From: a virus
Lineage: Duplodnaviria; Caudoviricetes
Direction: 5' to 3' (one strand)
Length of the DNA: 60,786 bases
IMG/VR virus record: IMGVR_UViG_3300046000_007143
Coordinates: 1 to 60,786 of that record
Shown here: positions 4,097 to 58,023 of the stretch, in pieces
How positions within the stretch are numbered: position 1 is the first letter of the stretch
How the letters are laid out: every line of letters begins with the position of its first letter
Notes under the pieces: generated by a model
Told to the model about the DNA's origin: nothing
Databases searched by the model: none
The model's input: the letters and a program-made list of their open reading frames with translations, nothing else
Program-made: the position numbers and the translations under genes

Positions 4097-4266
4097 CACT
4101 GCACCCCCACAATCTCGCCAGCCGCCAGCAGCACGCGCTTGCCGTCGGGCAGCGCCTCCCAGTGCTTGACCTGCACCGGATCACCCTTGTCGGGCTTCAC
4201 GTTCAGGACGATCTCGTTGTCGCGGGTCATGTATCCGCCAGTGACCGTGGCGTTGAAGCGGGTCAT
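4096..4266 (-). CDS. Small conserved phage protein
   Basis: MTRFNATVTGGY..., homolog at 47841..48011. Confidence 0.75.
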   Translation of the reverse strand: MTRFNATVTGGYMTRDNEIVLNVKPDKGDPVQVKHWEALPDGKRVLLAAGEIVGVQ

Positions 4267-4748
4267 GTGATGGGCTCCCGGAGAAGGTGGTCGGTGTGGC
4301 GCTGGACGCCCCAGAGAACGGTGCTGTGATCGCGACCACCGAAGTATTTGCCGATGGTCTGTGAGGTGAAGCGGCGCTTGCCGTCCGGCCGGCGCTGTTG
4401 CCACGCGAGCCAGAACGCCTCGTGCCGAGGGAATGCCAGGTCATTGGTGCGCGCGCCCGGCAGTCCGGCCGGCATGCGCAGGTCGTCCACGGACAGGCCG
4501 TGCTTGATGGCGACCTGCAGCGCGATCTCGGCCAGCGTCATCGGCTCACCGACACGGCGCGCGGCGTTCAACACGCCAGCCATGACGGTCGCGAGTGTCA
4601 GGACGCCGCGACGCTCGACCAGATGGCCGGCGACGTGAGCGAGCAACGCCTGCAGGTCAGCCGCGTCCATCGAGCCGAGAGTGCGCACGGCCGAGAACGC
4701 AGCCAGACCCAGGGGTCGCTCGTCGTCGTTCACAGGGACCGCGCTCAT
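4263..4748 (-). CDS. DnaA C-terminal (domain IV) HTH-containing protein
   Basis: LAFPRHEAFWL...IGKYFGGRDHSTVLWGV matches the DnaA domain IV signature (GGRDHxTV). Confidence 0.85.
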   Translation of the reverse strand: MSAVPVNDDERPLGLAAFSAVRTLGSMDAADLQALLAHVAGHLVERRGVLTLATVMAGVLNAARRVGEPMTLAEIALQVAIKHGLSVDDLRMPAGLPGARTNDLAFPRHEAFWLAWQQRRPDGKRRFTSQTIGKYFGGRDHSTVLWGVQRHTDHLLREPIT

Positions 4749-42852: not shown

Positions 42853-43354
42853 CGTCGGATTCATCGCGTCCAACTGGGCCAGAGTTGGATGTGTCACCCG
42901 CTACGGGCGACCACGGCAGGGCTTCAATGACGCCGGGCATCTGACTAGCGGTCAGATTGCCCGTCATTGTCAGGTTGTTGGTGACGATCTGGACAAGCTG
43001 GCGGGCCTGCTCTGGCATGGCGTTGCGGGCCGCTGCGTCGGCCTCGATGAACACCTTGGCGGCCTTAAGCCGGACGTCCTCGGAGTTGGCGCGCGTGGCC
43101 AGGTCGGAGACCGTCAACCACGCCTGGTCTGTTTGAGACGTCAACCACGCGCGTTTGACAGATGATCGAAACGCCCGGACGTGAGGCTTTTTCAGAGCCT
43201 GTGTCAGTGAATGCGGCTTATAGCCTGTGCGCAAGGCCGCATCTGCAACCGTGAGGCCTTCAGATACGATTAGCGTGATAGCGGTGCGCAATGCGGGGCT
43301 AATCCGCCCCTTGCGTATCTCTTCACCGTCGCGATTGACCAGCAGGTCTGTCAT
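42845..43354 (-). CDS. Putative terminase small subunit
   Basis: N-terminal HTH (TVADAALRTGY), SEDVRLKAA motif; first gene of the late region. Confidence 0.6.
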   Translation of the reverse strand: MTDLLVNRDGEEIRKGRISPALRTAITLIVSEGLTVADAALRTGYKPHSLTQALKKPHVRAFRSSVKRAWLTSQTDQAWLTVSDLATRANSEDVRLKAAKVFIEADAAARNAMPEQARQLVQIVTNNLTMTGNLTASQMPGVIEALPWSPVAGDTSNSGPVGRDESDDE

Positions 43355-43830
43355 CACGCCCGCTCTTTGCGCGGAGCCGGAACCGCACCCAGTGACGCGG
43401 CGAGTTCGGCCGGCATGAGCACAAGCGCGATCCCTGCAGTCTCGAGCCAAACCTCGGCCATGAATGAGAGGGCGATGTCACCGTCGGGCTTGTCGGTGCT
43501 CGGCGGATCGATTGTGATGCGGGCTCGGTACTCGTGCTCGGCCTTGGTCACATACCGATCCGACCACCCGGCACGACCGTCAAACTGTTCGCACGTCAAC
43601 CCGGAGGCGATGCGGTGCGCGCGGAGCATCGACGCGATGTCAGCGCGGGAATGGACGATGTAAGGCTGGGTGATCGCATGCGCCTGGTCGGCGTATCGGA
43701 TCGCGGGCGGTGTGATGACCGCGGTGTGTTCGCTGACTTGCGTGCCGGGATAGGCCGCCTCTTCGGCAAGCCACGCGTCCAGCGTCTCAAGGTCGCTCGG
43801 GTCGCGGTATTGTTGCGCTGATACGTCCAC
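43354..43830 (-). CDS. XRE-like HTH protein
   Basis: GGAGG RBS and GTG; LRAHRIASGLTCEQFDGRAGWSDRYVTKAE. Confidence 0.75.
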   Translation of the reverse strand: MDVSAQQYRDPSDLETLDAWLAEEAAYPGTQVSEHTAVITPPAIRYADQAHAITQPYIVHSRADIASMLRAHRIASGLTCEQFDGRAGWSDRYVTKAEHEYRARITIDPPSTDKPDGDIALSFMAEVWLETAGIALVLMPAELAASLGAVPAPRKERA

Positions 43831-44164
43831 TCTTCGCCTCCCTTGCCGGGGGCGGTATCTGTGTCCTGGGGCGCGCCAACGCATGAGCAAGATGCGGCGA
43901 GACGGTTACGGCGGGGTTAGTGCGATGCAGTGACCGACGGTTAGCGAATTATTCGATCGAGTGGCCCCATACCCTACCCCTATGTATTCTGTATCACTTG
44001 TTACACTTATGAATACCCCCCCCACATAGGGACACTCGATCGGTTTTAAGGCTGTGTTCCAGTCCACGACTGAGAAACCGAGTGGCGCCAGATGTCCCGG
44101 AATTTGCACTCCCGAGTCGTAAGGCTTACATACGGCGTGGGCGCCACTCGGGACACTCGATTTC

Positions 44165-44779
44165 ATGGATATTGTCGCGGAATACAGGGCCGATCGAGCA
44201 TGCCTTGACCGGGTCAAGACGGTGCTTTCCGAGGGCGAAATGAGCCGCAGCGAGCTTGGTCGCCGGTGTAGCGCACACCCAACGGCGCGGGTCCAGGGTG
44301 TGATCGACGGCCTGAAAGAGTCCGGCCGCATTGCCGAAACGATCATCCGGCAGGGGCGCGGCGTGCGAACGATGCTCCGCCTATCCGAGCCCAAGCAACC
44401 CGTCCACGACCCCTTGCTGGTGCGGATGAGCGAAGAGGCTGCGGCCGAACAGGCGGTCTGTGTCGCGCGGCTCAATGGCTGGTTTAGCGCGCTTGACGCC
44501 GACAGGACACTCACCCCGACGCGGTCAGCGGCATGCCCTGTGTTGGTTGCAGCGCGCGACATGCTGGTGATGCTGCACCGGACGCCGTGGAAATACGCCG
44601 TCGAGGCGCCGTTGTGGACGCTGACGGGCGATGTTGCTGATGTCCGTGGTGATACGGCGGCGAAGAAGGCAGCGCGCAAACTGGCTGATCTGGGCGCGAT
44701 CGTCCTGAAAGAGCGGCGTGGACGGGGGCGGACCAGCACGTTCAGGCTGGCCCACCTCCCGCCGTGGCCGATGGGCTAG
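44165..44779 (+). CDS. Putative tandem winged-helix DNA-binding protein
   Basis: Homolog of 614..1228. Confidence 0.7.
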   Translation: MDIVAEYRADRACLDRVKTVLSEGEMSRSELGRRCSAHPTARVQGVIDGLKESGRIAETIIRQGRGVRTMLRLSEPKQPVHDPLLVRMSEEAAAEQAVCVARLNGWFSALDADRTLTPTRSAACPVLVAARDMLVMLHRTPWKYAVEAPLWTLTGDVADVRGDTAAKKAARKLADLGAIVLKERRGRGRTSTFRLAHLPPWPMG

Positions 44780-47151
44780 TCCGCGACCCTGTACAGCTTG
44801 ATCTTGTGGCCGCCGGCAGGGGGTTGGTCCTCCCGCCGGTCCAGATCACCGCCGTCAACCAGACCATCCAGCATGTCCTTGAGGTCGCGAGCCTTCATGC
44901 GGTTCTTCATGGCCCGAGCGATGTCGCGGAACGTCATCCAGCCGCCGCCACGAAGGGCCCGCACCACCCGCTGCGCCTCACCCTGGTGCTGCGTATCGGC
45001 CATGTAGTCGCGCGCCATCTGCACGGTCTGTTCCGCCGACCAGCGGGCGAGGGCGATGCCCCAGTCCATGTCCTCGAGCGTGATCCGCGGTCGACCAGGG
45101 TTGATGCCAATGGCCCTGATCGTGGCCATGCGCTGCGCCATCTCCGCCGAGCGGGTGAAGAACACCGCGTCCTGCTCGCGCCGCTCGCACTCCTGCCCGA
45201 ACGCCATGTAGGACCGGTGCGCGAACTGATCGTCCCACGGCACGACAATCAGCGGCCCGTCGGACATGGCGTTGTGGCTGGTGGCGCGACTGAGTGGCGG
45301 CACCGCAGTCAGGATCGCGACCATAGCCTCCGAGATGGCCTCCGGAACAAGCGTCTTGTCCAGCAGTGGCTCGCGCTCCTCGACACGCCCGTGCGTCGAG
45401 AAAATCAGGAACCGGTTGAGGAAGCCGTTGAAGACGTCCGCCCCGTCGACGTTGTCGAAGAACTCCTCGTGCGTCGACACGCCATAGATGGACAGCGCCG
45501 GCGAGAAGATCGGCTCGCCCACCCTGCCCGCCCATTCCGGCGTCTGCATCGTGTCGAAACTGGAGCCCCAGGCCGAGCGCAGCGTGCGTGTGATCGCCTT
45601 CTCGTGCGTCGACGCCTTGCGCCCATTGATCCGGCCGAGATACCCGCCGAACTCGTCGATGCAGGTCAGTGTCAACGGCTGGCGATTGAGCCGCGAGACC
45701 AGCGCCGACATGGACATGAACTCGCCGGGCCCGACGTGTGCGCCCATGCCGGACGCACGCAGCACGCGGTCGATCGCCTTGAGCGGGTGATCCTTGGCCG
45801 CGCCAGACGGCGCCAGAAACAGCCCGTACAGGTGCGTTCCGGTGCGTGTAGGGCCCGAAAACGTGCGTCCAGCAGCCGTTCCGACGATTTCCAGCGCCGC
45901 CATCAGACTGCCGGCGCGCTGCGGCTTGCGTGCCGTGTCGCAGATCCAGTCGGTGAGATCGCCGACAAGGCCGGGGACCTGGGTGAGGGCGTCGGGGAGG
46001 TCGGATGAACCGGAACTAATGGATGGCAATGGAGGGTAATGAACCTCCGCAACCTGCTGATTTTGTTCCGTTATGGGAATCTGCAGGGCGGCCCTCACCC
46101 GCAACGGCTCCGGCAGGTCGTTGTCTTCGCATGGGGTCGATGCTGTCGAGGTCACCCCCAACGCGATCACCACCCCGTCGTCCTTCAGCCCCAGCCGCTC
46201 ACGCAGCCAGTCCGTCGCCTCCGCCTGCTCGCAGTCCCGCGCGGCCATCACGAGGTCGATCGCGCTGTAGGTGTCGTTCGTGCCGAAGTCCTTGATGCCG
46301 TCGCGCTGGATCGACAGGTTGCGCTTGCGATCCGGGATTGCCTGACCTGTGGACGACGCCCGCCATGTCGCGACCGCCTCATAGCCACCGCGTGCAGGCC
46401 TGCACCCGTACAGGTCGAGGGCGGGAACCCAGCGATCCAACGACGCCAACGCCGCACTTTTCGTCTCGGACCAGATGTCGTCGGGGTCGATTTCACCGCA
46501 ACGGGGTGCACGCGGCGCACGATCGTTGCCCGACACCCGCTCACGCGACCACCCGCACTGCTCCAGCGCCTCCTCAAGCGCCGTCATGTCCTCATCGGTC
46601 AACACAGGCAGTTCGTCGGCGCGCACCGGGCCAGCCAGCCAGACGTAGGGCTTGCCGGTTTCCGGGTGAATCGAGGGCGGGACGACGGTCTGTCGCGTGT
46701 CGAACCCGGTCAGACGATCAAGCAGGCGTCCGTCGGGGCCGTCATACGAGGCGGTCTTCAGCGACTTGGGGGCGAGGTAGAACCGGCTCTCACCCTTCTG
46801 CCCGCGCTTGACCATCGGGCTTGCCGGGGCCGCACGCAGCAGGGTGTCGAGGGCGTCCGCATCCTGGGCGTCGAAGTCCAGCACCACGACGTGCAGATCC
46901 TTGCGAGCGACCGTGCCCATGAGCAGGCCGATGTTGGCGCCCGGCGCCTTGGACCACAGCCCCAGCTCGAAAGCCGAGGGCGTGGTGTCACGGAACCGCT
47001 GCCACTTGCCCATGCCCTGCCAGTGACCGGAGCGGTACTCGCCGGGGCATTTGCCGCGCCCCTGGTGCTGGGTCCAGTCTGCCGGTATCAATGGGAGCAC
47101 GCTGAAGCCGAGGGCCTGCAGGTCGGATGCGGATGAGGCGAAGGGGCTCAT
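44776..47151 (-). CDS. Prim-Pol primase with DUF3987-like domain (B)
   Basis: Homolog of 1225..3600. Confidence 0.88.
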   Translation of the reverse strand: MSPFASSASDLQALGFSVLPLIPADWTQHQGRGKCPGEYRSGHWQGMGKWQRFRDTTPSAFELGLWSKAPGANIGLLMGTVARKDLHVVVLDFDAQDADALDTLLRAAPASPMVKRGQKGESRFYLAPKSLKTASYDGPDGRLLDRLTGFDTRQTVVPPSIHPETGKPYVWLAGPVRADELPVLTDEDMTALEEALEQCGWSRERVSGNDRAPRAPRCGEIDPDDIWSETKSAALASLDRWVPALDLYGCRPARGGYEAVATWRASSTGQAIPDRKRNLSIQRDGIKDFGTNDTYSAIDLVMAARDCEQAEATDWLRERLGLKDDGVVIALGVTSTASTPCEDNDLPEPLRVRAALQIPITEQNQQVAEVHYPPLPSISSGSSDLPDALTQVPGLVGDLTDWICDTARKPQRAGSLMAALEIVGTAAGRTFSGPTRTGTHLYGLFLAPSGAAKDHPLKAIDRVLRASGMGAHVGPGEFMSMSALVSRLNRQPLTLTCIDEFGGYLGRINGRKASTHEKAITRTLRSAWGSSFDTMQTPEWAGRVGEPIFSPALSIYGVSTHEEFFDNVDGADVFNGFLNRFLIFSTHGRVEEREPLLDKTLVPEAISEAMVAILTAVPPLSRATSHNAMSDGPLIVVPWDDQFAHRSYMAFGQECERREQDAVFFTRSAEMAQRMATIRAIGINPGRPRITLEDMDWGIALARWSAEQTVQMARDYMADTQHQGEAQRVVRALRGGGWMTFRDIARAMKNRMKARDLKDMLDGLVDGGDLDRREDQPPAGGHKIKLYRVAD

Positions 47152-47333
47152 GTTTTGTACTCGCGGAACATTCGCCGGAGGCCGAGCGCGCCATCTCCGG
47201 GCTTTCCGGGATGGCAGCAGCGGTCAAAGCGACGGTTGATCTGGTTGCGCAGGCCGAGCAGTTTCATGCGCACCAGCGTTTCGGCGTACAGCGCAGTCCG
47301 ATCCTCTCCGTCGACAAAAACTTGGTACCTCAC
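47148..47333 (-). CDS. Small protein inserted upstream of the primase (homolog of A 15014..15220)
   Basis: GTGA/ATGA coupling; RRFDRCCHPGKPGDG. Confidence 0.7.
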   Translation of the reverse strand: MRYQVFVDGEDRTALYAETLVRMKLLGLRNQINRRFDRCCHPGKPGDGALGLRRMFREYKT

Positions 47334-47536
47334 CCCTCTGCCCCCACCGGAATCGTCCACGCGCTGACGATGCGGTCGCCCGCGGCCTTGTTCGCCTCGT
47401 TGACCATGATGCAGGCGAAGGTCAGGTACTCGTCGGGCGTGAGCAGGCGCAGGTCGAGCTTGCCGATGCTGTCGAGGTGCGCGCCGGCGATGTCGGACGC
47501 GCGCTTGATGTCGTCGAGGGTGAGGTAGGGGGTCAT
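47330..47536 (-). CDS. Conserved hypothetical protein
   Basis: Homolog of 3597..3803. Confidence 0.8.
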   Translation of the reverse strand: MTPYLTLDDIKRASDIAGAHLDSIGKLDLRLLTPDEYLTFACIMVNEANKAAGDRIVSAWTIPVGAEG

Positions 47537-47841
47537 GCGTCGACTCCCTTGCGTGCGGGCGTCTTCGTGCGGCGAGGCTCTTCAAAGCCCGGCTTGATCG
47601 TCAGGAAGGCTTCAATCGACAGGCTGTCGTTGCGACGCTGGACCTTGCGGAAAATGGTGTGCGCCCACCCCTGCGCGGGAAGATCGAACATATCCTCCGT
47701 GTCAGTGGTCAGCCGAATACCGAAAAGATGGCTGGACAGCGGAGGAAGCACTGCCGCGACGGTGTAGGTGACGCCCCGAAACGGGTATCCCTCCTCGGCG
47801 GATATGCACACCACCTCATCGCCCGGTTTGAAATCGCACAT
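47533..47841 (-). CDS. Hypothetical protein
   Basis: Homolog of 3800..4096. Confidence 0.75.
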   Translation of the reverse strand: MCDFKPGDEVVCISAEEGYPFRGVTYTVAAVLPPLSSHLFGIRLTTDTEDMFDLPAQGWAHTIFRKVQRRNDSLSIEAFLTIKPGFEEPRRTKTPARKGVDA

Positions 47842-48011
47842 CACTGCACCCCCACGATTTCACCGGCCACCAGCAGCACGCGCTTGCCGTCGGGCAGCGC
47901 CTCCCAGTGCTTGACCTGCACCGGGTCGCCCTTGTCGGGCTTGAGGTTCAGGACGAACTCACCGGCACGGTTGACGTATCCGCCCGTCACCTTGGCGTTG
48001 AAGCGGGTCAT
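47841..48011 (-). CDS. Small conserved protein
   Basis: Homolog of 4096..4266. Confidence 0.75.
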   Translation of the reverse strand: MTRFNAKVTGGYVNRAGEFVLNLKPDKGDPVQVKHWEALPDGKRVLLVAGEIVGVQ

Positions 48012-48238
48012 GCGTGCTGTTCCCATGAGAAGCGGCGGGGCGGGGTGGGTGGCTGGATCCGCACCGGAGCGTTCCAGACTGCGGCCTCAAAGCGCCGAAG
48101 GCCGATCAGTCCGAGGCGGTCGAGCTTCCCGATCACCGCGTTGCGGGTGGTCTCGAACACGGCCGCAATCTCGGCCGCCGAATGTCCCTCGTTCCACATG
48201 GCGCGGAGCGCGCCTTCGTTCTGGCTCCAGTCGGTCAT
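48008..48238 (-). CDS. gcrA: GcrA-family protein (N-terminal DNA-binding domain only)
   Basis: W...LRAMWNEGHSAAEIAAVFETTRNAVIGKLDRLGL matches the GcrA N-terminus (LW..G.SASQIA..LG..TRNAVIGK.HRLGL). Confidence 0.85.
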   Translation of the reverse strand: MTDWSQNEGALRAMWNEGHSAAEIAAVFETTRNAVIGKLDRLGLIGLRRFEAAVWNAPVRIQPPTPPRRFSWEQHA

Positions 48239-48843
48239 GCCGACACCTCCGCCGACTGGCGTGCCGCGTGAGCGCGAATGCCGTGGAGAATGGTGGTGTG
48301 ATCGCGCCCACCGAAGATTCGGCCGAGCGCCGGCAGCGAGAGCCAGGGACGCAGCGACTTGACCTCTGAATAGGCAGCTTGACGTGCGTCCGAGATGCCC
48401 CTTCGCGTCTCCCGACCCATGATTTCCTCGGGCGTCACCCCGTAGGCGACAGCAATGCGGCCCACGATGTTCTGCACGGAAGGCGCGGACGCCCGGCGCG
48501 CGGCGTTGACGACGTTGGTCATCGCAGTCTCGGCAACCTCTTGGCCCTGCTCCGCAGCGATCAGCCCGGCGATCAGGGCCAGCGCCCGACGCAGCGCAAC
48601 CTCATCGAGACCCACGGCGATGCGCGCGATGCGGTCGATGGGATCAGCGGACAGCTCGGGCGCCGGGGCGGCAATGGCAGGCGCCACCACCCGAAGGTCC
48701 GGAACCGCCCGCACGTCATCCTGGCTGCAGCCGACCATGCGGGCGATGTTGCTGACCCCCACGCCCATGCCGCGCTTCTCGACGATGAAGGCGCGATCGG
48801 CCGAGGCCAAACCCCGCCGCGCCGTGGCAAACTCCCCGCCCAT
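48235..48843 (-). CDS. DnaA C-terminal domain protein with an extra N-terminal HTH
   Basis: ISDARQAAY...LSLPALGRIFGGRDHTTILHGI. Confidence 0.85.
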   Translation of the reverse strand: MGGEFATARRGLASADRAFIVEKRGMGVGVSNIARMVGCSQDDVRAVPDLRVVAPAIAAPAPELSADPIDRIARIAVGLDEVALRRALALIAGLIAAEQGQEVAETAMTNVVNAARRASAPSVQNIVGRIAVAYGVTPEEIMGRETRRGISDARQAAYSEVKSLRPWLSLPALGRIFGGRDHTTILHGIRAHAARQSAEVSA

Positions 48844-49235
48844 CACGCTGCAATCTCCATCGGTTCAATACGCGACGTCAGCCACGCGCGGGCCTCGGGC
48901 GTCAGGCTGTAGGTGCCGGTGCCGAACGCAGCCGGGATGCACCGCTCAGGGGCGCCAAGCGGGATGATGTGCTTGCGGATCTCGCAGATCGCGACCTTGA
49001 CGCACTCAATGATCGGCCCGTCGCCGTTGTCGTACTCGAACACGTTGCGGTAGATCGCGTCGACGCTCAGCGACCGGTTCGTGTTGAGCATGAGCGCGAG
49101 CACAGCGGCGTGCTTCGGCCGCAGCCCAAGCGCCGAGCGCAGGCGGGTGATCTGGTCTTCCGTGCCGGTCAGTTCTTCGATCCGGCCGCGCAGGTAGCGC
49201 ACCTGTTCTTGCAGGTCTTCGATTTGGGGCGTCAT
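48843..49235 (-). CDS. Receiver-less OmpR/CtrA-type winged-helix protein (B)
   Basis: LRPKHAAVLALML...VKVAICEIRKHI...FGTGTYSL. Confidence 0.8.
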   Translation of the reverse strand: MTPQIEDLQEQVRYLRGRIEELTGTEDQITRLRSALGLRPKHAAVLALMLNTNRSLSVDAIYRNVFEYDNGDGPIIECVKVAICEIRKHIIPLGAPERCIPAAFGTGTYSLTPEARAWLTSRIEPMEIAA

Positions 49236-50863
49236 GCCGCCTGCTCCTGTGATTGAGTGAAGCGGCGCGAAACGATGTTCCACCACTTTCCATTTCGTTT
49301 CACGCCTATGAAGGCGGGCTGCGTGAGCTCGGCCCAACGCACGAGGGCGCCGTCCACCGTCTCCGGCACCGGCATCTGCCCGCCATGCGCCGCCCACCAC
49401 TTCTCGGCGCGGTATCTGCCCGGTCCGCTGTGGGCCAGCAGCACCCACTCCGGATAGGACATGAGCCCCGCCGAGTAGGTCACCCGCAGGCTGTCCGGTG
49501 ACCCGGCCTTGACGTGCCGACGCGCCATCCACGTCACCACCGCGATCTCTTCGGGTGGCTGGTTGCGCAGGTCGCGCGACAGGATCGCGACGTCGTCCGC
49601 CTCCGCATCATGCCGGGCCTTGTCGAGCGTCCATTCGTGGCCACAGAAGGCGCAGGTCTGGGCGTTCAGCGCGGCGAGGGACTTGCAGGAGGGGCATTCC
49701 TTGGCTCGGACGTCGGAGATCTTGGCCGCGTCGGGCGCACCCTTCTTGCCGGGCCGCCGATCGACGGTGAGCGTGTCGACAGGACCGAGGCGGCGAATGG
49801 TGCCGGTGTAGTCGAGCACCAGGCAGTCATCCTTGCCGTCAGCCAGTCTCGTACCGCGGCCGAGCATCTGGACCAGCAGTCCGGGCGAGAGCGTCGGACG
49901 CAGCAACGCGATCATGTCGAGGCCGGGCGCATCGAACCCGGTCGTCAGGACGTTGGCGTTCGTGAGCACGCGCAGGCGTCCGGCACGGAAGTCGTCGATG
50001 AACCGCGACCGGTCGCCCGGATGCGTGTCGCCCGTGATCGTCTCCGCATGCACCCCCTGCCTGCGGAACTCGTCGCGGACATGGTGAGCGTGCTTGACCC
50101 CGGCGCAGAACGTCAGGATCGACCGACGCTCGGCTCCGAGGGTGATGATCTCCGACACGGCCGCGCGGGTGATCGCATCCTGATCGGCTGCAGCCTCGAG
50201 GGCGCCGGAGACGAACTCCCCTCCCCGCTTGGCCACCATCGAGACGTCGATCTCCGTCGCGCCACGCTTGGACACCAGCGGCGAGAGCCAGCCGTCGTCG
50301 ATGCCTTTGCCGATGCCGTAGGAGAACACGATCTCGTCGAACAGGCGGTCCTTGCCGTCGTCGAGGCGGCCAGTGTCCATGCGGAACGGCGTGGCGGTGA
50401 AGCCTGCAACGCGCAGGTCCGGCCGCATCTCGCGCAGGGCGTCCAGCAGGTGCCGGTACATGCCCTCGCCCGCCGACGGGACCAGATGCGCCTCGTCGAT
50501 GAGCACCAGGTCGAACGCGCCGAGCTCCTTCGCGCGGCGATAGACCGACTGCACGCTGGCGAAGATGATGCGCTGCGAGGTGTCGCGGCGCCCGAGGCCG
50601 GCGGAGTAGATGCCGACGGGGGCCGAGGGCCAGAGGGAGATCAGCGCCTTGGCGTTCTGGGCGACGAGTTCCCTGACGTGCACCAGCATGAGCACGCGCA
50701 TTTGGGGATAGGCCCCCAAAAGTCGCTGCGTCAGGTCGCCGATCGTGATCGACTTGCCGAGGCCGGTCGCCATGTCGACGAGCGGGTTGCCCCCGCCCTG
50801 TTGCCAGTAGGACAGGACGGAGTCGATGGCGGCGGATTGGTATGGGCGGAGTTGGGTTGTCAT
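49232..50863 (-). CDS. SF2 DEAD/H helicase (B)
   Basis: LRPYQ, ATGLGKS, DEAH, TATP, QMLGRG. Confidence 0.92.
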   Translation of the reverse strand: MTTQLRPYQSAAIDSVLSYWQQGGGNPLVDMATGLGKSITIGDLTQRLLGAYPQMRVLMLVHVRELVAQNAKALISLWPSAPVGIYSAGLGRRDTSQRIIFASVQSVYRRAKELGAFDLVLIDEAHLVPSAGEGMYRHLLDALREMRPDLRVAGFTATPFRMDTGRLDDGKDRLFDEIVFSYGIGKGIDDGWLSPLVSKRGATEIDVSMVAKRGGEFVSGALEAAADQDAITRAAVSEIITLGAERRSILTFCAGVKHAHHVRDEFRRQGVHAETITGDTHPGDRSRFIDDFRAGRLRVLTNANVLTTGFDAPGLDMIALLRPTLSPGLLVQMLGRGTRLADGKDDCLVLDYTGTIRRLGPVDTLTVDRRPGKKGAPDAAKISDVRAKECPSCKSLAALNAQTCAFCGHEWTLDKARHDAEADDVAILSRDLRNQPPEEIAVVTWMARRHVKAGSPDSLRVTYSAGLMSYPEWVLLAHSGPGRYRAEKWWAAHGGQMPVPETVDGALVRWAELTQPAFIGVKRNGKWWNIVSRRFTQSQEQAA

Positions 50864-51798
50864 GCGGCCACCCCTCCCCCATCAACCCACGTATCCCCCG
50901 ACGCCAGCCGGTACGTGACCCGCTCGTTCTCGAAGTCGACGTCGGTCTGCTCGCCGGGAATGGTGCTCGGGTTGTAGAGGTGCTGGGGGCACCCGACGCG
51001 CTGCTCGTCGAGCGTCAGATCCCGCCCCCACCGCGCGCACGACCAGCGAGCATCGCCGTCCAATGTCGCGGATGAATGGAGACACGTCCGGCAAGACCGT
51101 GCCGGCATGAGCCCGTCGTTCGGCGCGCAGCCGTAGCCCGCCTTCAGGAAATAGACGGGGCAACTGCATGCCGGACGTCGGTCGGAGGTGACGATGCGTT
51201 CGGCGCGGGTCATCAGCCGGGCGAACTCGAGGGCGTCGAAGTCAACGCGCTCCGCGTACAGGGTGTCGTCGTTCTTGTTGACGGCCAGGTACAGCGCACG
51301 CGTCCTGCCGCGCAGACCCATGTAGGTCTGCATCTGCGCGTGGTGCGTCGGCTTGGATTCGCGAACCGCCTTCTTCAGCAGATCCTTGAACGACTTGTCC
51401 TTGTGCGTCTTGAACTCGACGACGTGCACGGTCTTCGGCGCTTCCGGCACATTGGTCGCCTCACCGTCGAGGTGACCGCCGCCATGCCCGCCTGCAAACC
51501 GGACAGCGAACTGTTCGCCGGTCTCAGGATCGACATCATGCAGGTCGAAGCCCGCGGCCTTCATCATCTCGACAAGGCGCGCTTCCCAGCGGTGGCCGGT
51601 CTCAAAGATCGAGAGCTTTTGACCGTCAAAAATCTCAGCCGGAAACAGCCAGCGAAAGTTGTCCCAGAGCTTGCGTTCGCACTCGTCGCCAAGCACGGAC
51701 GCGCCAAGGTAGGCGCGGCGACTGCGATCCTGGGTCTGCTCGAGGTGAGCGAACAGCTTGGCCACCGTAGGCGGCGTGGTTTGCGGGAGCTCAGGCAT
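50860..51798 (-). CDS. PD-(D/E)XK exonuclease (B)
   Basis: Homolog of 7321..8253. Confidence 0.85.
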   Translation of the reverse strand: MPELPQTTPPTVAKLFAHLEQTQDRSRRAYLGASVLGDECERKLWDNFRWLFPAEIFDGQKLSIFETGHRWEARLVEMMKAAGFDLHDVDPETGEQFAVRFAGGHGGGHLDGEATNVPEAPKTVHVVEFKTHKDKSFKDLLKKAVRESKPTHHAQMQTYMGLRGRTRALYLAVNKNDDTLYAERVDFDALEFARLMTRAERIVTSDRRPACSCPVYFLKAGYGCAPNDGLMPARSCRTCLHSSATLDGDARWSCARWGRDLTLDEQRVGCPQHLYNPSTIPGEQTDVDFENERVTYRLASGDTWVDGGGVAA

Positions 51799-51955
51799 CT
51801 GGCGCCTGCCCGGTGCACGCCATCTGCGCCTCGCCGCACGACTCGCACAGCCAGTCGCCGTCGAGGCGGATGACCTCGCCCTCGTCGACCAGCATGCCGC
51901 AGTCGTCGCAGGGAGCGATCTCGGGCTCGACGGTGTCTTCGTATTGGAGGGTCAT
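51791..51955 (-). CDS. Small zinc-ribbon protein
   Basis: MTLQYEDTVEPEIAPCDDC...CESC; homolog of 8246..8425. Confidence 0.7.
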   Translation of the reverse strand: MTLQYEDTVEPEIAPCDDCGMLVDEGEVIRLDGDWLCESCGEAQMACTGQAPDA

Positions 51956-52269
51956 GCGGACACCTCGGGGATGAAGGCCTGGCTGTCCCCGAACAGGCCG
52001 TCTCCGCTCGGGAGTAGCCGACCGTTTTCGATCAGCCGCTCGCAGACGGAGGCGTTCAGCGCGCGGCCACTGGGGAGGCTAAAAAAGCTCCCCTTGAGGG
52101 CTTCGGGCGTGATCGTCTGTTCGACGTGGCCGCTGGACCGGATCAGGCCGAGGCACCGATCCTCCACCTTCCGCAGCGCCTTCGCGCGCTTCCGGCTCGC
52201 CGCATTTTCTTTCGGGGAGGAAGTCGCCGGGCAGGCAGCTTCGGCAGTAGTGGTGGTCGGTGAGGCCAT
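51952..52269 (-). CDS. B-specific hypothetical protein (start uncertain)
   Basis: LIENGRLLPSGDGLFGDSQ; stop coupled to the next gene. Confidence 0.55.
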   Translation of the reverse strand: MASPTTTTAEAACPATSSPKENAASRKRAKALRKVEDRCLGLIRSSGHVEQTITPEALKGSFFSLPSGRALNASVCERLIENGRLLPSGDGLFGDSQAFIPEVSA

Positions 52270-52348
52270 CACCGCCTCGCCCCCAGCCCCAAAGGCTGAA
52301 TGGTGCATCGTTTCCGCAGATGCATCGCGGGAGTGCGTGTGCATTCAC
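52079..52348 (-). CDS. B-specific zinc-finger protein ending QGELF
   Basis: CIC...CRSC; GGAGGGG RBS; GTGA coupling. Confidence 0.5.
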   Translation of the reverse strand: MNAHALPRCICGNDAPFSLWGWGRGGDGLTDHHYCRSCLPGDFLPERKCGEPEAREGAAEGGGSVPRPDPVQRPRRTDDHARSPQGELF

Positions 52349-52524
52349 ACCCCTCCCCTGAACGCACGGTCCAGCAGGCGTTGTGCGGCGCTGATCTCGA
52401 GGCGACCGGCGGTGACAAAGCCGCCCTCGAACTCGGTTTTGGCTTGGCGAACGATCTCGGCGACTTGCGTGAGCAGGTCGACCTCATCCTGTCGGCCATC
52501 GACAGGGCGCAGTTGTTCGGTCAT
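52345..52524 (-). CDS. Conserved hypothetical protein
   Basis: Homolog of 8425..8607. Confidence 0.75.
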   Translation of the reverse strand: MTEQLRPVDGRQDEVDLLTQVAEIVRQAKTEFEGGFVTAGRLEISAAQRLLDRAFRGGV

Positions 52525-52621
52525 CGTCAGGGGCTCCTGCGATGCTGTTGGAAGACAGCGGGTTGGAAGGGTCGCCGGACGGGTCGGAGTTGGAAGCTAG
52601 GCCCGTCCGGCGATGTTCAGT
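52525..52621 (-). promoter_or_regulatory. Conserved structured intergenic element with three UUCCAAC motifs
   Basis: Near-identical to 8608-8704. Confidence 0.55.
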
Positions 52622-53098
52622 TTAGGCAGCCTTCTTGCCCCAGGGCGTTCCGGCCGGCGACAGCGCCGCGGTCGCGGGTCCGGCAGCGCCAACTGCGGAG
52701 ACTGGCGAGTACCGGGCGACCTTGTTCTTCGGGCCGTAGCCGTTCTGGGCGGGTTCCGTGCGGACGCGGATGAGGACCGGCTTGAACTCGATCTGGTCGC
52801 TGTTCGTGACCGCGCCGTTGTGGCCGACGGCCTTGGCGATGTCCTTCACGGCGCGCGTCGCGATCTCCTGCGTCTGCGGGTTGGGGTGGACGATGTTCTG
52901 CCCATCCCAGATGCGGCGCTTGGCGTATTCGCCCTCGAGGATTTCCCAGGTGAAGACCGCGCGCTGCTTGATGCCGCCGTCCTTCACCGTGTGAACAGTC
53001 TCGATGATGTGGGCCACGACATCGCAGTCGGGGATCGGGTCGAAGTCACCGCCTTCGCGGTCAGGGACGCTATCAACGTCGATGTTGAGGGCAACCAT
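52622..53098 (-). CDS. DUF669-type SSB (B, diverged allele)
   Basis: FTWEILEGEYAKRRIW; TPWGKKAA. Confidence 0.8.
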   Translation of the reverse strand: MVALNIDVDSVPDREGGDFDPIPDCDVVAHIIETVHTVKDGGIKQRAVFTWEILEGEYAKRRIWDGQNIVHPNPQTQEIATRAVKDIAKAVGHNGAVTNSDQIEFKPVLIRVRTEPAQNGYGPKNKVARYSPVSAVGAAGPATAALSPAGTPWGKKAA

Positions 53099-53122
53099 GT
53101 TGGAAGTCTCCTTTCGGGAGGG

Positions 53123-53917
53123 TTAGGCCGCTTGAGCAGCCGGGGTCTCGACCGCGCCAACGGCCGATTGGGGGAAGAAGGGAGCCAGGGCAGCAAAGCC
53201 CTCGCCGCGCTTGAACATGATGCGGGCCGGCATGTTGTACCGGTTGCCGGCGGTGAACGCGGGCTTGCCCTCGGTGTAGATCCAGCGTGTGTCGCCGCCG
53301 TCTGCACGGGCGCGCTCGCCCTTGCCCTCGGTCTTGATGGTCACGTCCTTCTTGACCAGCAGGATGGCGTCGACCTCGCGCTTCAGCAGCGCCTCGGCCC
53401 GCTTGTGCAGGTCGATGTCGTAGCGGCTGTAGGACTGCGTCTCGGGGTCGTCGAAGCGGCTGATGATCGCGTGACCGACCAGCACGACGGCCATGCCGCG
53501 CTCGTTGCGGAGGTAGTTCAGGCCGTCGAGTACCTGGAGCCACAGATTGTCGGCCTCGATGTAGCCCTTGCCGTAGCCGCCACCTGCCAGCTCGATCGAC
53601 TTGACGTTGGAGTCGCGGCAGACCTTGTCCCAGACCAGCTTCTGCAGGGCGGAGACGCTGTCGAGGACGACGGTCTGGAAGCTGTGCTCTTCCTGACAGA
53701 GCGACGTGATGGCCTCGATGACGCTCTCGAACGTGTCCAGCGTGCCGAAACTGTCCAGCACCAGGTCGCCGCTCTCGCCGCGTTCGGTTTGCAGGAACAC
53801 CGGCGCCGGGAATTCTGCCGCCAGCGTCGTCTTGCCCATCTTCTCGGGGCCGTAGATCAGGAGGCGCGGGGGTTGGTCAGCGCGGACCTTGCGCAGGGAT
53901 GAAAGGGTGATGGCCAT
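53123..53917 (-). CDS. AAA_24 / Sak4-like ATPase (B)
   Basis: Near-identical to 9188..9979. Confidence 0.88.
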   Translation of the reverse strand: MAITLSSLRKVRADQPPRLLIYGPEKMGKTTLAAEFPAPVFLQTERGESGDLVLDSFGTLDTFESVIEAITSLCQEEHSFQTVVLDSVSALQKLVWDKVCRDSNVKSIELAGGGYGKGYIEADNLWLQVLDGLNYLRNERGMAVVLVGHAIISRFDDPETQSYSRYDIDLHKRAEALLKREVDAILLVKKDVTIKTEGKGERARADGGDTRWIYTEGKPAFTAGNRYNMPARIMFKRGEGFAALAPFFPQSAVGAVETPAAQAA

Positions 53918-54069
53918 TATGCGGCGTCCTTCTGCGTGACTGCCCAGCCGTTCTTGGACAGCGCCGCGATCGTGCGAAACGCGATGTTGATGTCGTCATC
54001 GTCTCGGTTCTTGCGACCGGCTTGATTTGCCAGCGCGTCCGCCAGTGCGGCGACTTCAGTCGGGATCAT
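53917..54069 (-). CDS. 50-aa hypothetical protein (B-specific)
   Basis: MIPTEVAALADALANQAGRK...; TAATG coupling. Confidence 0.55.
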   Translation of the reverse strand: MIPTEVAALADALANQAGRKNRDDDDINIAFRTIAALSKNGWAVTQKDAA

Positions 54070-54070
54070 C

Positions 54071-54646
54071 TCAAACTTCTCCGTCTTCATCTGGCGCGTC
54101 GATGAACCAGCCGCCGGTCGCGCCGTCCGTGTGCGGGTGGAAGTTGAGGGTGATCGGTTCCGCCGGGCGGATCATCACTCGGGCAATGGGTGTGCGGTGA
54201 CCGCCCTGCGGCATCCATGCGAGGACCAGGCCGGTCACGAACCGGTCGTCGTCGATGACGTGGTGCGCGGTCAGCAAATCCAGAACCGCCTTGGCCTGAT
54301 TGTCGAGATCGGCGCGCAGGTTCGTCCGCTCGACGCCGATCATCACGACGACGCGGCCCGGCACGCGGTCGCATCCGTCAGCAGCCATCTGCTCGCGAAT
54401 GCGCCAGCCGGCCTCTTGCAGCCACGCCTTGTACTTCGGCGTCTTGAAGCGACCGCGGACGCTGTTCGAGAACAGGTTGTTGACCGACGGCGGCGCGGGA
54501 ATGGTGAGGGTGGTGCAGGCGGAAGCGCCGGGGGACGACGCTCCCGCCTGCTGGCGCACCCCAGGCACGGAAACCGCGCCGGGATTCTGTTCGCCCATCA
54601 GGGCAATGTGGTCGGCGGCTTCGGCCGCAGCGATGTGAGCACGCAT
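54071..54646 (-). CDS. rusA: RusA-family resolvase (B)
   Basis: PPSVN, DLDNQAKAVLDLL, IDDDRFV. Confidence 0.88.
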   Translation of the reverse strand: MRAHIAAAEAADHIALMGEQNPGAVSVPGVRQQAGASSPGASACTTLTIPAPPSVNNLFSNSVRGRFKTPKYKAWLQEAGWRIREQMAADGCDRVPGRVVVMIGVERTNLRADLDNQAKAVLDLLTAHHVIDDDRFVTGLVLAWMPQGGHRTPIARVMIRPAEPITLNFHPHTDGATGGWFIDAPDEDGEV

Positions 54647-54867
54647 CAGCGACGCTCCCGCCAGCGACGGACAGCGACGAGCACACGGGCAGCCAGAAGC
54701 TGCAGGTGCGACGCGATCCAGCCCGGCCCCGAAAGGAACCAAGCGGTCGCTTTACCGAGAACCCATACCGGCCCGAGGATGATCGCAAGGACCACCATCA
54801 ACGGCGTGAAGGAGGGCCGCTGCCCGTCCGAGTTCTGCGGCTTGGATGCGGCGTTGTTCTGCCTCAT
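54646..54867 (-). CDS. Small putative membrane protein overlapping the cII-position gene
   Basis: Homolog of 10738..10959. Confidence 0.6.
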   Translation of the reverse strand: MRQNNAASKPQNSDGQRPSFTPLMVVLAIILGPVWVLGKATAWFLSGPGWIASHLQLLAARVLVAVRRWRERR

Positions 54868-55174
54868 GGTCCAGCCTGTTTCTTTCCGATGCGATGAAAT
54901 CGGTCAGCCCGTGTCCGATCACGCCACCCAGGATCGGGAGCGCGAGGGACCAGCCGCCGTTTTTGTGGCTCAGGATCTTTTCGACCGTCCTGAGTGATGC
55001 TTCACCACGGAGTAGGCGCTTGGCCTCATCCGGGGTCAGGTCCCAGCACCGCTCGATGTTCTTAAGGGTGTGCGTGGGCCACCGCCCCTGCACGTAGGCC
55101 CGCAGGCCGGACTTGAAGTCCGGTGCGGAAACGCCCCTATCGTGGTGCTGGAATGTCATCATCGCGTCCGTCAC
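54752..55174 (-). CDS. cII-position protein (B)
   Basis: Homolog of 10844..11275. Confidence 0.65.
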   Translation of the reverse strand: MTDAMMTFQHHDRGVSAPDFKSGLRAYVQGRWPTHTLKNIERCWDLTPDEAKRLLRGEASLRTVEKILSHKNGGWSLALPILGGVIGHGLTDFIASERNRLDHEAEQRRIQAAELGRAAALLHAVDGGPCDHPRAGMGSR

Positions 55175-55307
55175 AGTGAACCTCGTTGGAAGGCACTGAA
55201 GACAGCAGCGAAGAGGGAGTTGGAGAAGTGATCGACACGGCCGGCGCCAACCGGAACGGGTCGAATGGAAGCGGCAAGGGGGTGCGCCAACACCCCCGAA
55301 GCCGGGC
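55175..55307 (-). ncRNA. Candidate regulatory RNA (GUUGGCGC-loop hairpins)
   Basis: Conserved with 11276-11416. Confidence 0.5.
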
Positions 55308-55339
55308 GCGTTACAGAGATGTAACGGCAGTCGCTCAGA

Positions 55340-55696
55340 TTGTGGTTGCGCGCGGCTCTATTGCCACGCTTGATGGAAATCCGGCGCACGGGGGCGTCAC
55401 GGAGAGTACCATTGCAGAGCGTAGCCAAGCTGGCGGAGGCGTCGGTCGTCGCCCCGCCCTCGACCGAACTGTGCCTGATCGCAGGCGTCATCATCCACCT
55501 GTCATCCGGCAAGCCCAAACGGGTCGAGCGGATGGTCAAGTCGATGCGGGAGTTCACGGACGGGCACCGCAACATGGCGTCGGTCATCCGCATCCGGGGG
55601 GCGGAGTACGACGAGCAAGTGCTGGACAGCATGGAGAAGGCCGCCGCCTGGCTGGAGCGAATGGAGCCGTTCCTGCTGATGATGGCCAAGCGGTAG
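55340..55696 (+). CDS. Antisense helical protein in the cro operon (start uncertain)
   Basis: Homolog of 11441..11794. Confidence 0.65.
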   Translation: MWLRAALLPRLMEIRRTGASRRVPLQSVAKLAEASVVAPPSTELCLIAGVIIHLSSGKPKRVERMVKSMREFTDGHRNMASVIRIRGAEYDEQVLDSMEKAAAWLERMEPFLLMMAKR

Positions 55697-55697
55697 G

Positions 55698-55889
55698 TCA
55701 TGCCACGCCCCGCATCAGGTCTAGAGCTGGAACGCCGACGATAGCCGCCAGCTTCTCTGCGCTCTCGAAACTCGGACGACTTGCGCCAGTCTCGATGCGC
55801 CAGATTTGTTGCCTCGACAGTCCGACCTTCTCGCCCAACTCTCGCTGGGTGATTTCGGCCTTCTCGCGAAATGAAGTGATCGGGTGCAT
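55698..55889 (-). CDS. Cro-like XRE repressor (B)
   Basis: FREKAEITQRELGEKVGLSRQQIWRIETGASRPS. Confidence 0.82.
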   Translation of the reverse strand: MHPITSFREKAEITQRELGEKVGLSRQQIWRIETGASRPSFESAEKLAAIVGVPALDLMRGVA

Positions 55890-55898
55890 GTCGATCAA

Positions 55899-55983
55899 GT
55901 TACACGGGGTGTGACCTGATGCAAGCGGAAAGTTACACCCGGCGATGACGACAGCGACTGCCGTCCGTTTCACCCTGTGCGAC
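55899..55983. promoter_or_regulatory. OR-like operators of B (GTYACA-N5-TGTRAC)
   Basis: GTTACACGGGGTGTGAC 55899-55915, half-site GTTACA at 55932, GTTTCACCCTGTGCGAC 55967-55983. Confidence 0.72.
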
Positions 55984-56325
55984 ATGGGGAAAAAGGTCAG
56001 GCCAACGACGTCGGAGATGATCGAGCCGCTGCCGATGCTGCGCGTCATCCGCAAGGAGATGGGCAAGACCCAGGATTGGCTGGCCGAGCAGGTCGGCATG
56101 ACCAAGGCCAGCATCTCGCGCATAGAGAAGGGCGACCAGAACTGGGACGCCGCTTTCCTGCGAGCTGCAGCGCGCGCCCTCTCGGTTGATTCGGCAGATC
56201 TCCTGAAGCGCCGGACACCACAAGAGACAGCCGTCATGCTGGCCATGCGAGGCCTTGGACCCAAAGGCCAGCAAGCCGCCGTCGACATGGTTCGAGCCTT
56301 GGAGCGTAGCGGCACCGACAGCTAG
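55984..56325 (+). CDS. CI-like XRE repressor (B), no S24 domain
   Basis: LRVIRKEMGKTQDWLAEQVGMTKASISRIEKG. Confidence 0.88.
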   Translation: MGKKVRPTTSEMIEPLPMLRVIRKEMGKTQDWLAEQVGMTKASISRIEKGDQNWDAAFLRAAARALSVDSADLLKRRTPQETAVMLAMRGLGPKGQQAAVDMVRALERSGTDS

Positions 56326-56358
56326 TTCCACCCCGCGCAACTTTTCCTGTTGCGCTAA

Positions 56359-56375
56359 GTCACACGCCATGTAAC
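56359..56375. promoter_or_regulatory. OL-like operator of B
   Basis: GTCACACGCCATGTAAC between TTGCGC and TAACTT promoter-like hexamers. Confidence 0.72.
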
Positions 56376-56405
56376 TTTGTGGTCATCACAAAGGAGGACA
56401 TTGGC

Positions 56406-56690
56406 GTGTCGCACCCCAACCAAATCGCACTCCCCGTCGCCGTCGGCCGCTGGATCGACCAGTCGCAGGCGCTGCCTGACGCGGTCGCCGTTGAGCGGCT
56501 GAGTGACAAGTTCATCTTCATCACCGAGGCGATCGACGTGCTGGCGTCCGACACGGACGATGCGCCGGTCGAGATCCGCGGCCTGTCCGTCATCGATCTC
56601 ATGTCGGCGCAGGCGACGCTCACGATCGAGATCGGCACGCGGCGTCGGCATGCCGAGATTGGCGAGCGGATGCTGGAGCGTGCAGCGTGA
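56406..56690 (+). CDS. First early-operon protein
   Basis: Homolog of 12510..12785. Confidence 0.8.
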   Translation: MSHPNQIALPVAVGRWIDQSQALPDAVAVERLSDKFIFITEAIDVLASDTDDAPVEIRGLSVIDLMSAQATLTIEIGTRRRHAEIGERMLERAA

Positions 56691-56887
56691 CCGCCCTCTC
56701 CTACTTCGACACGCCGGCGCACCCGCTCGGCATCGTCACGCACCCGAACTGGGACGCCGTTCGTGATCGCTGGAACGCGCTGTACTGCGCCCGCATCCTG
56801 AACGCCGCCCGCGAAGACCGCGACCAGAAGAGGGGCCGGGCTCCGGCTCGGCCCCTCGGGAGCGTCAACCTGGGAGCCGACCAATGA
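56687..56887 (+). CDS. Conserved small early protein
   Basis: Homolog of 13108..13293. Confidence 0.75.
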   Translation: MTALSYFDTPAHPLGIVTHPNWDAVRDRWNALYCARILNAAREDRDQKRGRAPARPLGSVNLGADQ

Positions 56888-57988: not shown

Positions 57989-58023
57989 CTATGCATTATA
58001 CATACCATTAGGAATATGTTCAC

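Follow-up and report, generated by a model that had tools for sequence, protein, structure and literature searches.

CtrA, DnaA and GcrA form the core of the best-studied bacterial cell-cycle circuit. Here, we describe a cassette of three small genes for proteins resembling the DNA-binding modules of these regulators, found in the virus record IMGVR_UViG_3300046000_007143 (Duplodnaviria; Caudoviricetes), the whole 60,786 bases of which were analysed and are hereafter designated the window. The three products are a receiver-less winged-helix protein of the CtrA type (WH; P0001), a protein with DnaA domain IV (DnaA-IV; P0002), and a shortened GcrA (GcrA-N; P0003). For each of the three homologues there is a phage precedent, and a truncated phage CtrA is already known. 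Homologues of gafA and rcc01866 are present in roseophages such as RDJLΦ1, which has a receiver-less CtrA between them (Fogg 2019, PMC6363796), and GcrA homologues have been described for the phiCbK-like phages, with a host-directed role proposed for the phiCbK one (PMC3556154). The remark in the initial annotation of the window that phage gcrA homologues are known individually thus holds, and receiver-less phage CtrA has to be added as also being in print. The DnaA-like helix-turn-helix (HTH) of GafA, and Caulobacter GafY, activate the genes of gene transfer agents via RNA polymerase omega or sigma-70 (PMC9638019, PMC11150451). In Alphaproteobacteria, phages and gene transfer agents are known to come under the regulation of host CtrA. 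Promoters in Brevundimonas phage Delta, in phiCbK and in a Mesorhizobium phage are bound by it and subject to its regulation (PMC9437464), and infection by phage Jorvik needs host CtrA (PMC10589892). Supplementary tables aside, the RDJL description was the only account of a phage CtrA-like protein found in the literature, and PMC13392355 and PMC8601537 contained nothing on phage-encoded CtrA. What appears to be new in the present locus is a small phage CtrA form with a coiled coil and an AA tail, fixed behind the helicase in Brevundimonas phages, a short GcrA form with a conserved tail, and the presence of all three regulator look-alikes in one exchangeable slot.

A receiver-less winged helix of the CtrA type

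WH consists of 130 amino acids (aa), lacks both a receiver domain and a phosphorylation site, and has a helical coiled coil and linker as its residues 1–36. Its match to Pfam Trans_reg_C (PF00486) reaches 23.6 bits on residues 38–102, under the gathering cut-off of 26.2, and its relative P0010 carries a precomputed PF00486 match. The assignment to CtrA, proposed tentatively in the initial annotation, was examined by profile comparisons and trees, in which WH was found to group with CtrA and not away from it. Thus, when the family profile (A2) was compared with the OmpR-type proteins of Brevundimonas faecalis, CtrA (NF045991, 414 bits) ranked first at 40.1 bits, followed by regulators at 32.8 and 32.7 bits; the comparison took in 14 of the 15 Trans_reg_C matches above the cut-off in this genome, that is, all except the 940-aa frame L046. 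Of 401 genomes sampled from the same class, 349 were matched by the WH profile at E ≤ 1e-5 (a tally that takes in two genomes flagged as unpublished, G243 and G043, on which nothing else here depends), and among the best 29 loci from 29 alphaproteobacterial genomes, with the prophage excluded, the top NCBIfam family of the matched protein was CtrA in 25, of which 11 pass the equivalog cut-off, the remaining four being short frames without a family. Moreover, a careful tree (60 rows, 94 columns) separated 43 WH and four CtrA rows from 13 other host regulators with a branch support of 100/97, and a second, quick tree with 13 CtrA rows gave the WH–CtrA grouping a support of 97. CtrA was also the best NCBIfam family, by a wide margin, for P0109 and P0157, the only proteins of response-regulator length in the profile search. 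The WH family and CtrA have in common the motifs P..KI[IV]DV[FV][IV]CK[IL]R.K and WG.GY and the terminal AA. As for the recognition-helix signature of CtrA (KIIDVFICKLRKK), P0027 and P0036 are among the family members that retain it, the recognition helix of P0027 (KIIDVFICKIRKK) being almost identical to that of CtrA, and P0001 reads ECVKVAICEIRKH there. P0001 itself has no NCBIfam family at E ≤ 1e-5 and so falls short of the equivalog cut-off of CtrA (NF045991, 350 bits). These results show that the DNA-binding domain of WH is closer to CtrA than to other OmpR-family regulators.

The relatives of WH constitute a real family of small stand-alone proteins. A word-index search gave nine of them, and a profile built from these gave 209 matches at E ≤ 0.001 in a search of 1.84 billion representative proteins; among the 149 matches listed (query excluded), 141 are at most 180 aa long, and most span the whole profile. 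In the AlphaFold model of WH (pLDDT 82), a long helix (residues 3–23) and a second helix (26–36) are followed by helices 40–50, 58–66 and 77–93, a hairpin, and a final helix; a three-helix winged HTH with the C-terminal β-hairpin wing is therefore present. Effector domains of the OmpR/PhoB type have an N-terminal platform made of a four-stranded β-sheet. This platform was not found in the WH model, where helices 3–23 and 26–36 occupy its place. Comparison of the model with the PDB by Foldseek placed OmpR/PhoB-type DNA-binding domains (ArlR, CovR, PhoB and PhoP) at the top, with a target TM of ~0.6 and root-mean-square deviations of 2.0–2.6 Å over ~76 columns, at a best E value of 3e-3 and with none at E ≤ 0.001; a sequence search of the PDB with the family profile gave PmrA/BasR as the best match (E 0.0045), which is not decisive by itself.

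The long N-terminal helix contains three heptads with I5, L8, V12, L15, I19 and L22 at the a and d positions, of which L8, V12, L15 and L22 are invariant in the alignment of close relatives (A1). Taken by itself, this heptad pattern suggests a zipper dimer, which would replace the phosphorylation-driven dimer of a response regulator. At the other end of the protein, Ala-Ala forms the C-terminus in 24 of the 38 closest representatives (mostly as [VIL]AA), in 41 of the 149 matches listed, and in seven of the ten sequences of A1. The degron of CtrA requires its terminal Ala-Ala. This adaptor-independent ClpXP degron consists of the last 15 residues of CtrA (10.1101/301606).

Cellular CtrA (NF045991) is the nearest cellular relative of the WH DNA-binding domain and has the Ala-Ala C-terminus in common with it, whereas the coiled coil of WH takes the place of the N-terminal part. 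As for phages, tblastn with the DNA-binding domain of host CtrA gave 83 phage records (many others in the collection are bacterial-looking), including RDJL Φ1 and Φ2 (58–61% identity, annotated ctrA), RDJL6, RDJL3, Paracoccus phage vB_PmaS-R3, and 21 Rhodobacter capsulatus phages. P0027 as the query also reached Rhizobium phage RHph_X2_30; no match among the cultured phages was obtained by tblastn with either P0001 or P0003. A Foldseek search of viral models likewise found the 'Transcriptional regulator CtrA' of Roseobacter phage RDJL Phi 2. In this phage, gp33 combines an N-terminal HTH (HTH_38, sigma-r4 and DnaA-like) with DUF6456, gp32 is a winged helix, and gp31 is a DUF6477 protein. Like WH, gp32 (151 aa) is a phage CtrA-type winged helix without a receiver (hhalign against the WH family: probability 98.5, E 4e-15), and the receiver-less RDJL CtrA also lies in the early/replication region and adjoins a protein with a DnaA-like HTH. 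However, gp32 has no N-terminal coiled coil, carries a C-terminal extension of ~55 aa, and keeps the CtrA recognition helix (EVKIIDVFICKVRAKL), being 58–61% identical to the CtrA DNA-binding domain in contrast to 27.5% over 40 aa for P0001. Moreover, it is flanked by a GafA homologue (DUF6456) and a DUF6477 (rcc01866-like) protein, and the host of RDJL belongs to Rhodobacterales.

The other relevant phage proteins are RcSalem gp58 (L095 2638–3243) and a protein of Paracoccus phage R3 (L096 2650–3450), in which DUF6456 (GafA-C-type; 32.3 and 26.8 bits versus a cut-off of 26.3) is fused to a CtrA-type winged helix. These fusions belong to the same winged-helix lineage as WH, their profile match starts at position 10 and thus covers part of the preceding helix, and RcSalem gp58 ends in AAA; they differ from WH, which stands alone, in having the winged helix joined to the GafA-C-type domain. 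In the second tree, the WH family grouped with the Rhizobium phage protein (support 94), the two fusion proteins were sister to that group (SH-aLRT 84), and RDJL gp32 fell, without resolution, at the base of CtrA. The Paracoccus R3 protein has an extra HTH_23/HTH_38 at its end, and the annotations of the fusion proteins read only 'HTH DNA binding domain protein' or 'CzcR-like response regulator'.

Partner genes and the variable slot behind the helicase

P0002 comprises 203 aa from the GTG start, or 202 aa from an ATG one codon later (48843), the form on record as P0167. It matches Pfam Bac_DnaA_C (PF08299) at 53.1 bits (cut-off 31.5) on residues 125–191 and TIGR00362 (DnaA) at 50.4 bits (cut-off 343.9), the matched positions of the latter being only 321–415 of 437, without the AAA+ domain III; its identity to host DnaA domain IV is 35–36%. 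A relative, P0169, carries a precomputed match to PF13936 (HTH_38). GafA (in its N-terminus) and GafY resemble P0002 as small phage-derived alphaproteobacterial proteins with a DnaA-type HTH, and those two, as described in the papers on them, activate structural genes. However, P0002 has a complete domain IV (53 bits, with RDHTT), whereas the DnaA likeness of GafA is remote, and DUF6456 was found neither in P0002, nor in its slot relatives, nor in a 407-aa host protein resembling it. Short proteins of Rhizobium phages RHph_TM3_3_3 and RHph_N28_2 and of Microcystis phage Mae-JY35 match DnaA domain IV only and are 37–43% identical to P0002; they differ from it in the N-terminus, and none is annotated beside a CtrA- or GcrA-type gene where this was looked at.

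P0003 scores 40.7 bits against Pfam GcrA (PF07750; cut-off 26.9) and shares 52% identity with host GcrA across 46 aa. Its match covers only positions 3–59 of 155 in the Pfam profile and 8–48 of 173 in NCBIfam GcrA (NF050816), and in alignment A4 it ends in the linker, without the C-terminal sigma-70-binding domain. The short form was represented by six protein clusters in the word-index search and has a conserved PPTPPRRFSWEQ tail. phiCbK gp222 and the GcrA of other Caulobacterales phages are full-length forms, as are those of two relatives of the window described below (L002 and L004); P0003 instead stops in the linker. A read-through of TGA at 47834–48229, by which the match could be carried past three in-frame TGA codons as far as profile position 124, was considered and rejected; the translation is rich in Pro, Arg and Ser and contains no GcrA C-domain, and the extension was therefore taken as an alignment artefact and not as recoding. 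Both of these domain assignments of the initial annotation, that is, DnaA domain IV with GGRDHTT and a GcrA N-domain that has lost its C-terminal domain, were therefore borne out.

The three genes overlap one another by start and stop codons, as do their outer neighbours, at all four junctions: helicase/WH (ATGA, in which the stop codon of the helicase, the upstream neighbour of the trio, overlaps the WH start), WH/DnaA-IV (GTGA), DnaA-IV/GcrA-N (ATGA), and GcrA-N/next gene (ATGA). The trio is covered with 0 differences by contigs from three lake-water metagenome runs (47895–49239, 47895–49236 and 48017–49236). Open reading frames, overlaps and contigs thus agree with the reading of three consecutive overlapping genes behind the helicase.

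The composition of the cassette was compared among eight loci syntenic from the helicase to the primase-polymerase, namely, the two copies found in the window, four IMG/VR relatives (L002–L005), and two Brevundimonas prophages (L029 and L030); L031 was left out of the tally, its matches lying in the primase only. WH, DnaA-IV and short GcrA occur together in the copy described above (copy B) and in L003, WH and DnaA-IV in the second copy of the window (copy A) and in L030, WH and short GcrA in L005, and WH only in L029. In L002, WH is accompanied by a short WH paralogue without the coiled coil and by a full-length GcrA (150 aa), and in L004 by a WH paralogue, a full-length GcrA (153 aa from ATG) and DnaA-IV. 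Accordingly, WH is present in 8/8 loci, DnaA-IV in 5/8, GcrA in 5/8 (short in three, full-length in two), and all three in 3/8, and the gene order varies. WH orthologues with 36–92% identity lie at the same position in the seven other loci, and orf61, the gene bordering the cassette downstream (without a family in the Pfam and PHROG scans), is present in all eight at 57–86% identity. The identity across the loci is 29–49% for DnaA-IV and 40–54% for GcrA, as against 63–94% for the helicase and 70–84% for the primase. These results show a slot of variable content, in which the trio is only one of several states and WH the sole constant member. A reading of the trio as a conserved functional unit is not sustained by a set that is complete in 3/8 loci, varies in order, includes two full-length GcrA proteins, and lacks GcrA in the second copy of the window itself.

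Two further genes were seen in some of these loci. The WH paralogue (81–95 aa, no coiled coil, Trans_reg_C 18.5–20.6 bits) lies directly after WH (L002 3663–3908; L004 3097–3384) and is confined to exactly the two loci with full-length GcrA. Between the helicase and WH, a gene with HNH-like motifs and low G+C content at third codon positions is found in L029 (3866–4462) and L004 (2034–2708); it was named from its motifs, a Pfam scan of the L029 copy giving no family, and judged from its sequence it looks like a homing endonuclease.

The hosts were traced through the primase, relatives of which (alignment A3) were found in a Brevundimonas metagenome-assembled genome (MAG), in Brevundimonas faecalis, and in a Caulobacteraceae MAG; a genome scan with the WH alignment A1 found no relative. 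All three genomes encode DnaA and GcrA, and CtrA was seen in two of them, as an equivalog in Brevundimonas faecalis and as a 233-aa homologue in the Brevundimonas MAG. Hosts of the related prophages thus have the circuit. Strong matches to the WH family (E ≤ 1e-13) were obtained in 3/301 genomes of the host's order and 2/401 of its class, and in the starting genome alone among 401 of its phylum, these figures being for samples in which 10–14 first-look candidates were scored per genome. GANTC is the site of CcrM. It occurs 69 times in the window versus 294 ± 19 expected from shuffles, a strong deficit, with local clusters at 11365–12411 (six sites) and 17185–17656 (four sites); no methyltransferase domain was seen among the window open reading frames scanned.

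Lying between the helicase and the primase-polymerase, the cassette belongs to the early (replication) operon of a ~43-kb temperate phage of Brevundimonas. The window amounts to ~1.4 genome equivalents, positions 1–17720 being colinear with 43476–60786 at 69–91% DNA identity from the early operon to the integrase, and a contig of run X1 continues past 60782 into exactly the sequence at 17721–17750. A second, diverged version of the early region is thus present in the window, which is either a wrap-around assembly of two strains (with a circular or concatemeric ~43-kb genome) or derived from tandem prophages. In the second cassette copy, the orf61 homologue follows directly after the DnaA-IV gene (Table 1). 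The contigs of the three metagenome runs stop at the borders of the trio (47895; 49236–49239), and the summed read depth is higher in some conserved flanks, which fits several phage cassette variants coexisting in the same lakes; the 14 runs that contain this stretch, none of them listed as RNA, have no bearing on expression. In the intergenic region 43954–44164, between an XRE-type HTH gene (43354–43890, minus strand) and a gene at 44165–44779 (plus strand), there are two units of 17–18-nt inverted repeats with arms resembling ATCGAGTGxCCC, 55 nt apart, the units being spaced by 121 bp around an AT-rich core. The other genome copy (515–536) has different repeats, among them two GTTTCACG units in tandem, spaced by 11 bp. 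Such repeats could be variant-specific operators or an origin.

Table 1 Features of the cassette and its second copy in the window.
Feature	Position	Strand	Evidence
SF2 helicase, 543 aa	49232..50863	minus	Pfam ResIII 81.9 bits, Helicase_C 52.3 bits; PHROG 16 DNA helicase 320 bits
WH gene (P0001, 130 aa): receiver-less CtrA-type winged helix, N-terminal coiled coil, ...IAA tail	48843..49235	minus	Pfam, AlphaFold model, profile, trees
WH coiled-coil segment, residues 3–23	49167..49229	minus	model helix 3–23 and heptads
WH winged HTH, residues 38–111; recognition helix IIECVKVAICEIRKHI	48903..49124	minus	Pfam residues 38–102, model, alignment to CtrA
DnaA-IV gene (P0002): N-terminal HTH, helical linker, DnaA domain IV	48235..48846	minus	Pfam, NCBIfam
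Weak N-terminal HTH of P0002, residues 18–46 (tentative)	48709..48795	minus	Pfam HTH_29, E 0.063 only
DnaA domain IV proper, residues 95–192, including GGRDHTT	48271..48564	minus	TIGR00362, Bac_DnaA_C
GcrA-N gene (P0003, 76 aa): GcrA DNA-binding domain and linker stub ending PPTPPRRFSWEQHA	48008..48238	minus	Pfam, NCBIfam, alignment A4
orf61, downstream border of the cassette; likely start in the ATGA overlap at 48011	47841..48026	minus	syntenic in 8/8 loci
Second WH copy (P0012), 54% identical to P0001	4745..5119	minus	
Second DnaA-IV gene (161 aa, 29% identical)	4263..4748	minus	Bac_DnaA_C 33.0 bits; tblastn layout; open reading frames

Possible roles of the cassette

The reading that we favour, with a confidence that falls a little short of an even chance, is that of a phage transcription-factor cassette, the core of which would be a phosphorylation-independent CtrA surrogate with exchangeable DnaA- and GcrA-type partners. 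In each of the three translationally coupled genes, a host cell-cycle regulator would be reduced to its DNA-binding module. WH, a CtrA-type winged helix that has lost the receiver and gained a putative three-heptad leucine zipper, may bind DNA as a constitutive dimer that does not need phosphorylation through CckA-ChpT, and this dimer would give the phage CtrA-style promoter control whatever the cell-cycle state of the host. DnaA-IV and GcrA modules would act as exchangeable accessory DNA-binding factors, combined differently among related phages. The most likely job of the cassette would be control of phage transcription, that is, activation of middle or late genes, or switching, in the manner of gene transfer agents and roseophages, in which the structural genes are driven by CtrA, a DnaA-like HTH protein (GafA/GafY) and contacts with RNA polymerase. 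The analysis establishes the structure and homology of the genes, the grouping with CtrA, the variability of the cassette, the clade of the hosts, and the tie of CtrA-type winged helices to GafA modules in cultured phages, whereas dimerisation, DNA binding, phosphorylation independence, ClpXP turnover and the regulatory targets are inferred. Our preference rests on the recurrent association of this winged-helix lineage with activator modules of the GafA type. Likewise, the role of late activator suggested in the initial annotation is made more plausible by cultured phages of Alphaproteobacteria, whose CtrA-type winged helices adjoin or are fused with such modules.

Several observations weigh against the transcription-factor cassette. 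As to its core, the outgroup of the trees consists of the regulators of a single genome and the domain compared is short (93–94 columns), the recognition helix of P0001 (ECVKVAICEIRKH) differs from that of CtrA (LKIIDVFICKLRKK) at several positions, and the start codon of the following gene, which overlaps, may account for part of the terminal Ala of WH. As to its targets, the CtrA box TTAA-N7-TTAA, allowing up to one mismatch, was found 0 times in the window versus 0.55 expected, repeat and promoter scans of the region 41.5–56.5 kb gave no candidate WH site, and no recurrent tandem 5–6-mers at 10–12 bp spacing were found in 6,359 bp of intergenic DNA. The cassette stands among replication genes and not at the start of a late operon. 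Finally, neither DUF6456 nor DUF6477 was found among 67 window open reading frames scanned, and P0002 was not significantly similar to gp33, the GafA homologue of RDJLΦ2 (BLASTP E 0.11), so that the link of the cassette to GafA would be one of analogy only.

Less likely in our estimate, but a live rival, is a take-over of the host by mimicry. The stripped domains would bind, in a constitutive or dominant-negative manner, to CtrA boxes, DnaA boxes and methylated GANTC promoters of the host and thereby arrest or reprogramme its cycle; silencing of the chromosomal origin, a block of division, or shutdown of pili and flagella are examples. The cassette contains counterparts of all three host regulators, and the host clade has the circuit. 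Besides lacking the CtrA box, the phage genome has no excess of DnaA boxes (28 in the window versus 21.8 ± 4.5 expected, none exact and no cluster), and canonical sites, if bound, would thus be on the host chromosome. A short GcrA without the sigma-70-binding domain is what would be expected of a decoy, members such as P0027 nearly keep the recognition helix of CtrA, and the role proposed for the phiCbK GcrA homologue is host-directed (PMC3556154). However, only WH is constant, the full trio being confined to 3/8 loci, and the full-length GcrA of two relatives is not a decoy. Furthermore, P0001 is 27.5% identical to host CtrA over 40 aa and has a diverged helix, P0002 is 35–36% identical to host DnaA domain IV, and this type of winged helix is linked, in cultured phages, with activator modules of the GafA type.

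It is quite improbable that the cassette serves to recognise a replication origin, WH with or without DnaA-IV marking the phage origin and recruiting the helicase and primase-polymerase, with the variable members setting the specificity. Such a role would suit its location between the genes for these two enzymes and the nature of DnaA domain IV, which is an origin-binding module. DnaA-IV and GcrA, moreover, diverge much faster (29–54% identity) than the flanks (63–94%), like specificity determinants, and the variant-specific repeat clusters lie just past the primase gene. On the other hand, DnaA-IV is missing in 3/8 loci, DnaA boxes form no cluster, and the repeats are in a divergent promoter region beside the XRE-type HTH gene, which could equally own them; no OmpR-type winged helix is known to serve as a phage initiator. 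The last alternative, that of chance frames or family matches or an assembly artefact, for which the Pfam score of WH under the gathering cut-off and the metagenome assembly wrapping round the genome might speak, is refuted by the orthologues at the same position in seven other loci, by the well-modelled OmpR-type fold, and by the identical contigs from three runs that span the trio.

Implications for phages of Caulobacterales

A broader proposal, which we regard as unlikely though worth stating, is that the coiled-coil WH proteins are a 'portable CtrA', that is, zipper-dimerised, phosphorylation-independent and ClpXP-tagged copies of the CtrA domain, by which temperate phages of Caulobacterales and other Alphaproteobacteria would impose or block the CtrA state of the host, with GcrA and DnaA decoys swapped in the same slot as a modular take-over cassette. 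If so, the host origin would be silenced, division halted, or pilus and flagellar receptors switched off, for example. Temperate Brevundimonas phages are, in any event, predicted to carry their own CtrA-type DNA-binding protein, without phosphorylation input and with a putative dimerisation helix, and beside its gene there is a slot that takes GcrA-type and DnaA-type modules in differing combinations. The locus is a testable system with a cultivable lysogen, the prophage L030 of Brevundimonas faecalis. It bears on the question of how phages couple to, or bypass, the host cell cycle and on the role of the truncated CtrA of roseophages, as well as on the origin of the CtrA-GafA control of gene transfer agents from phage regulators.

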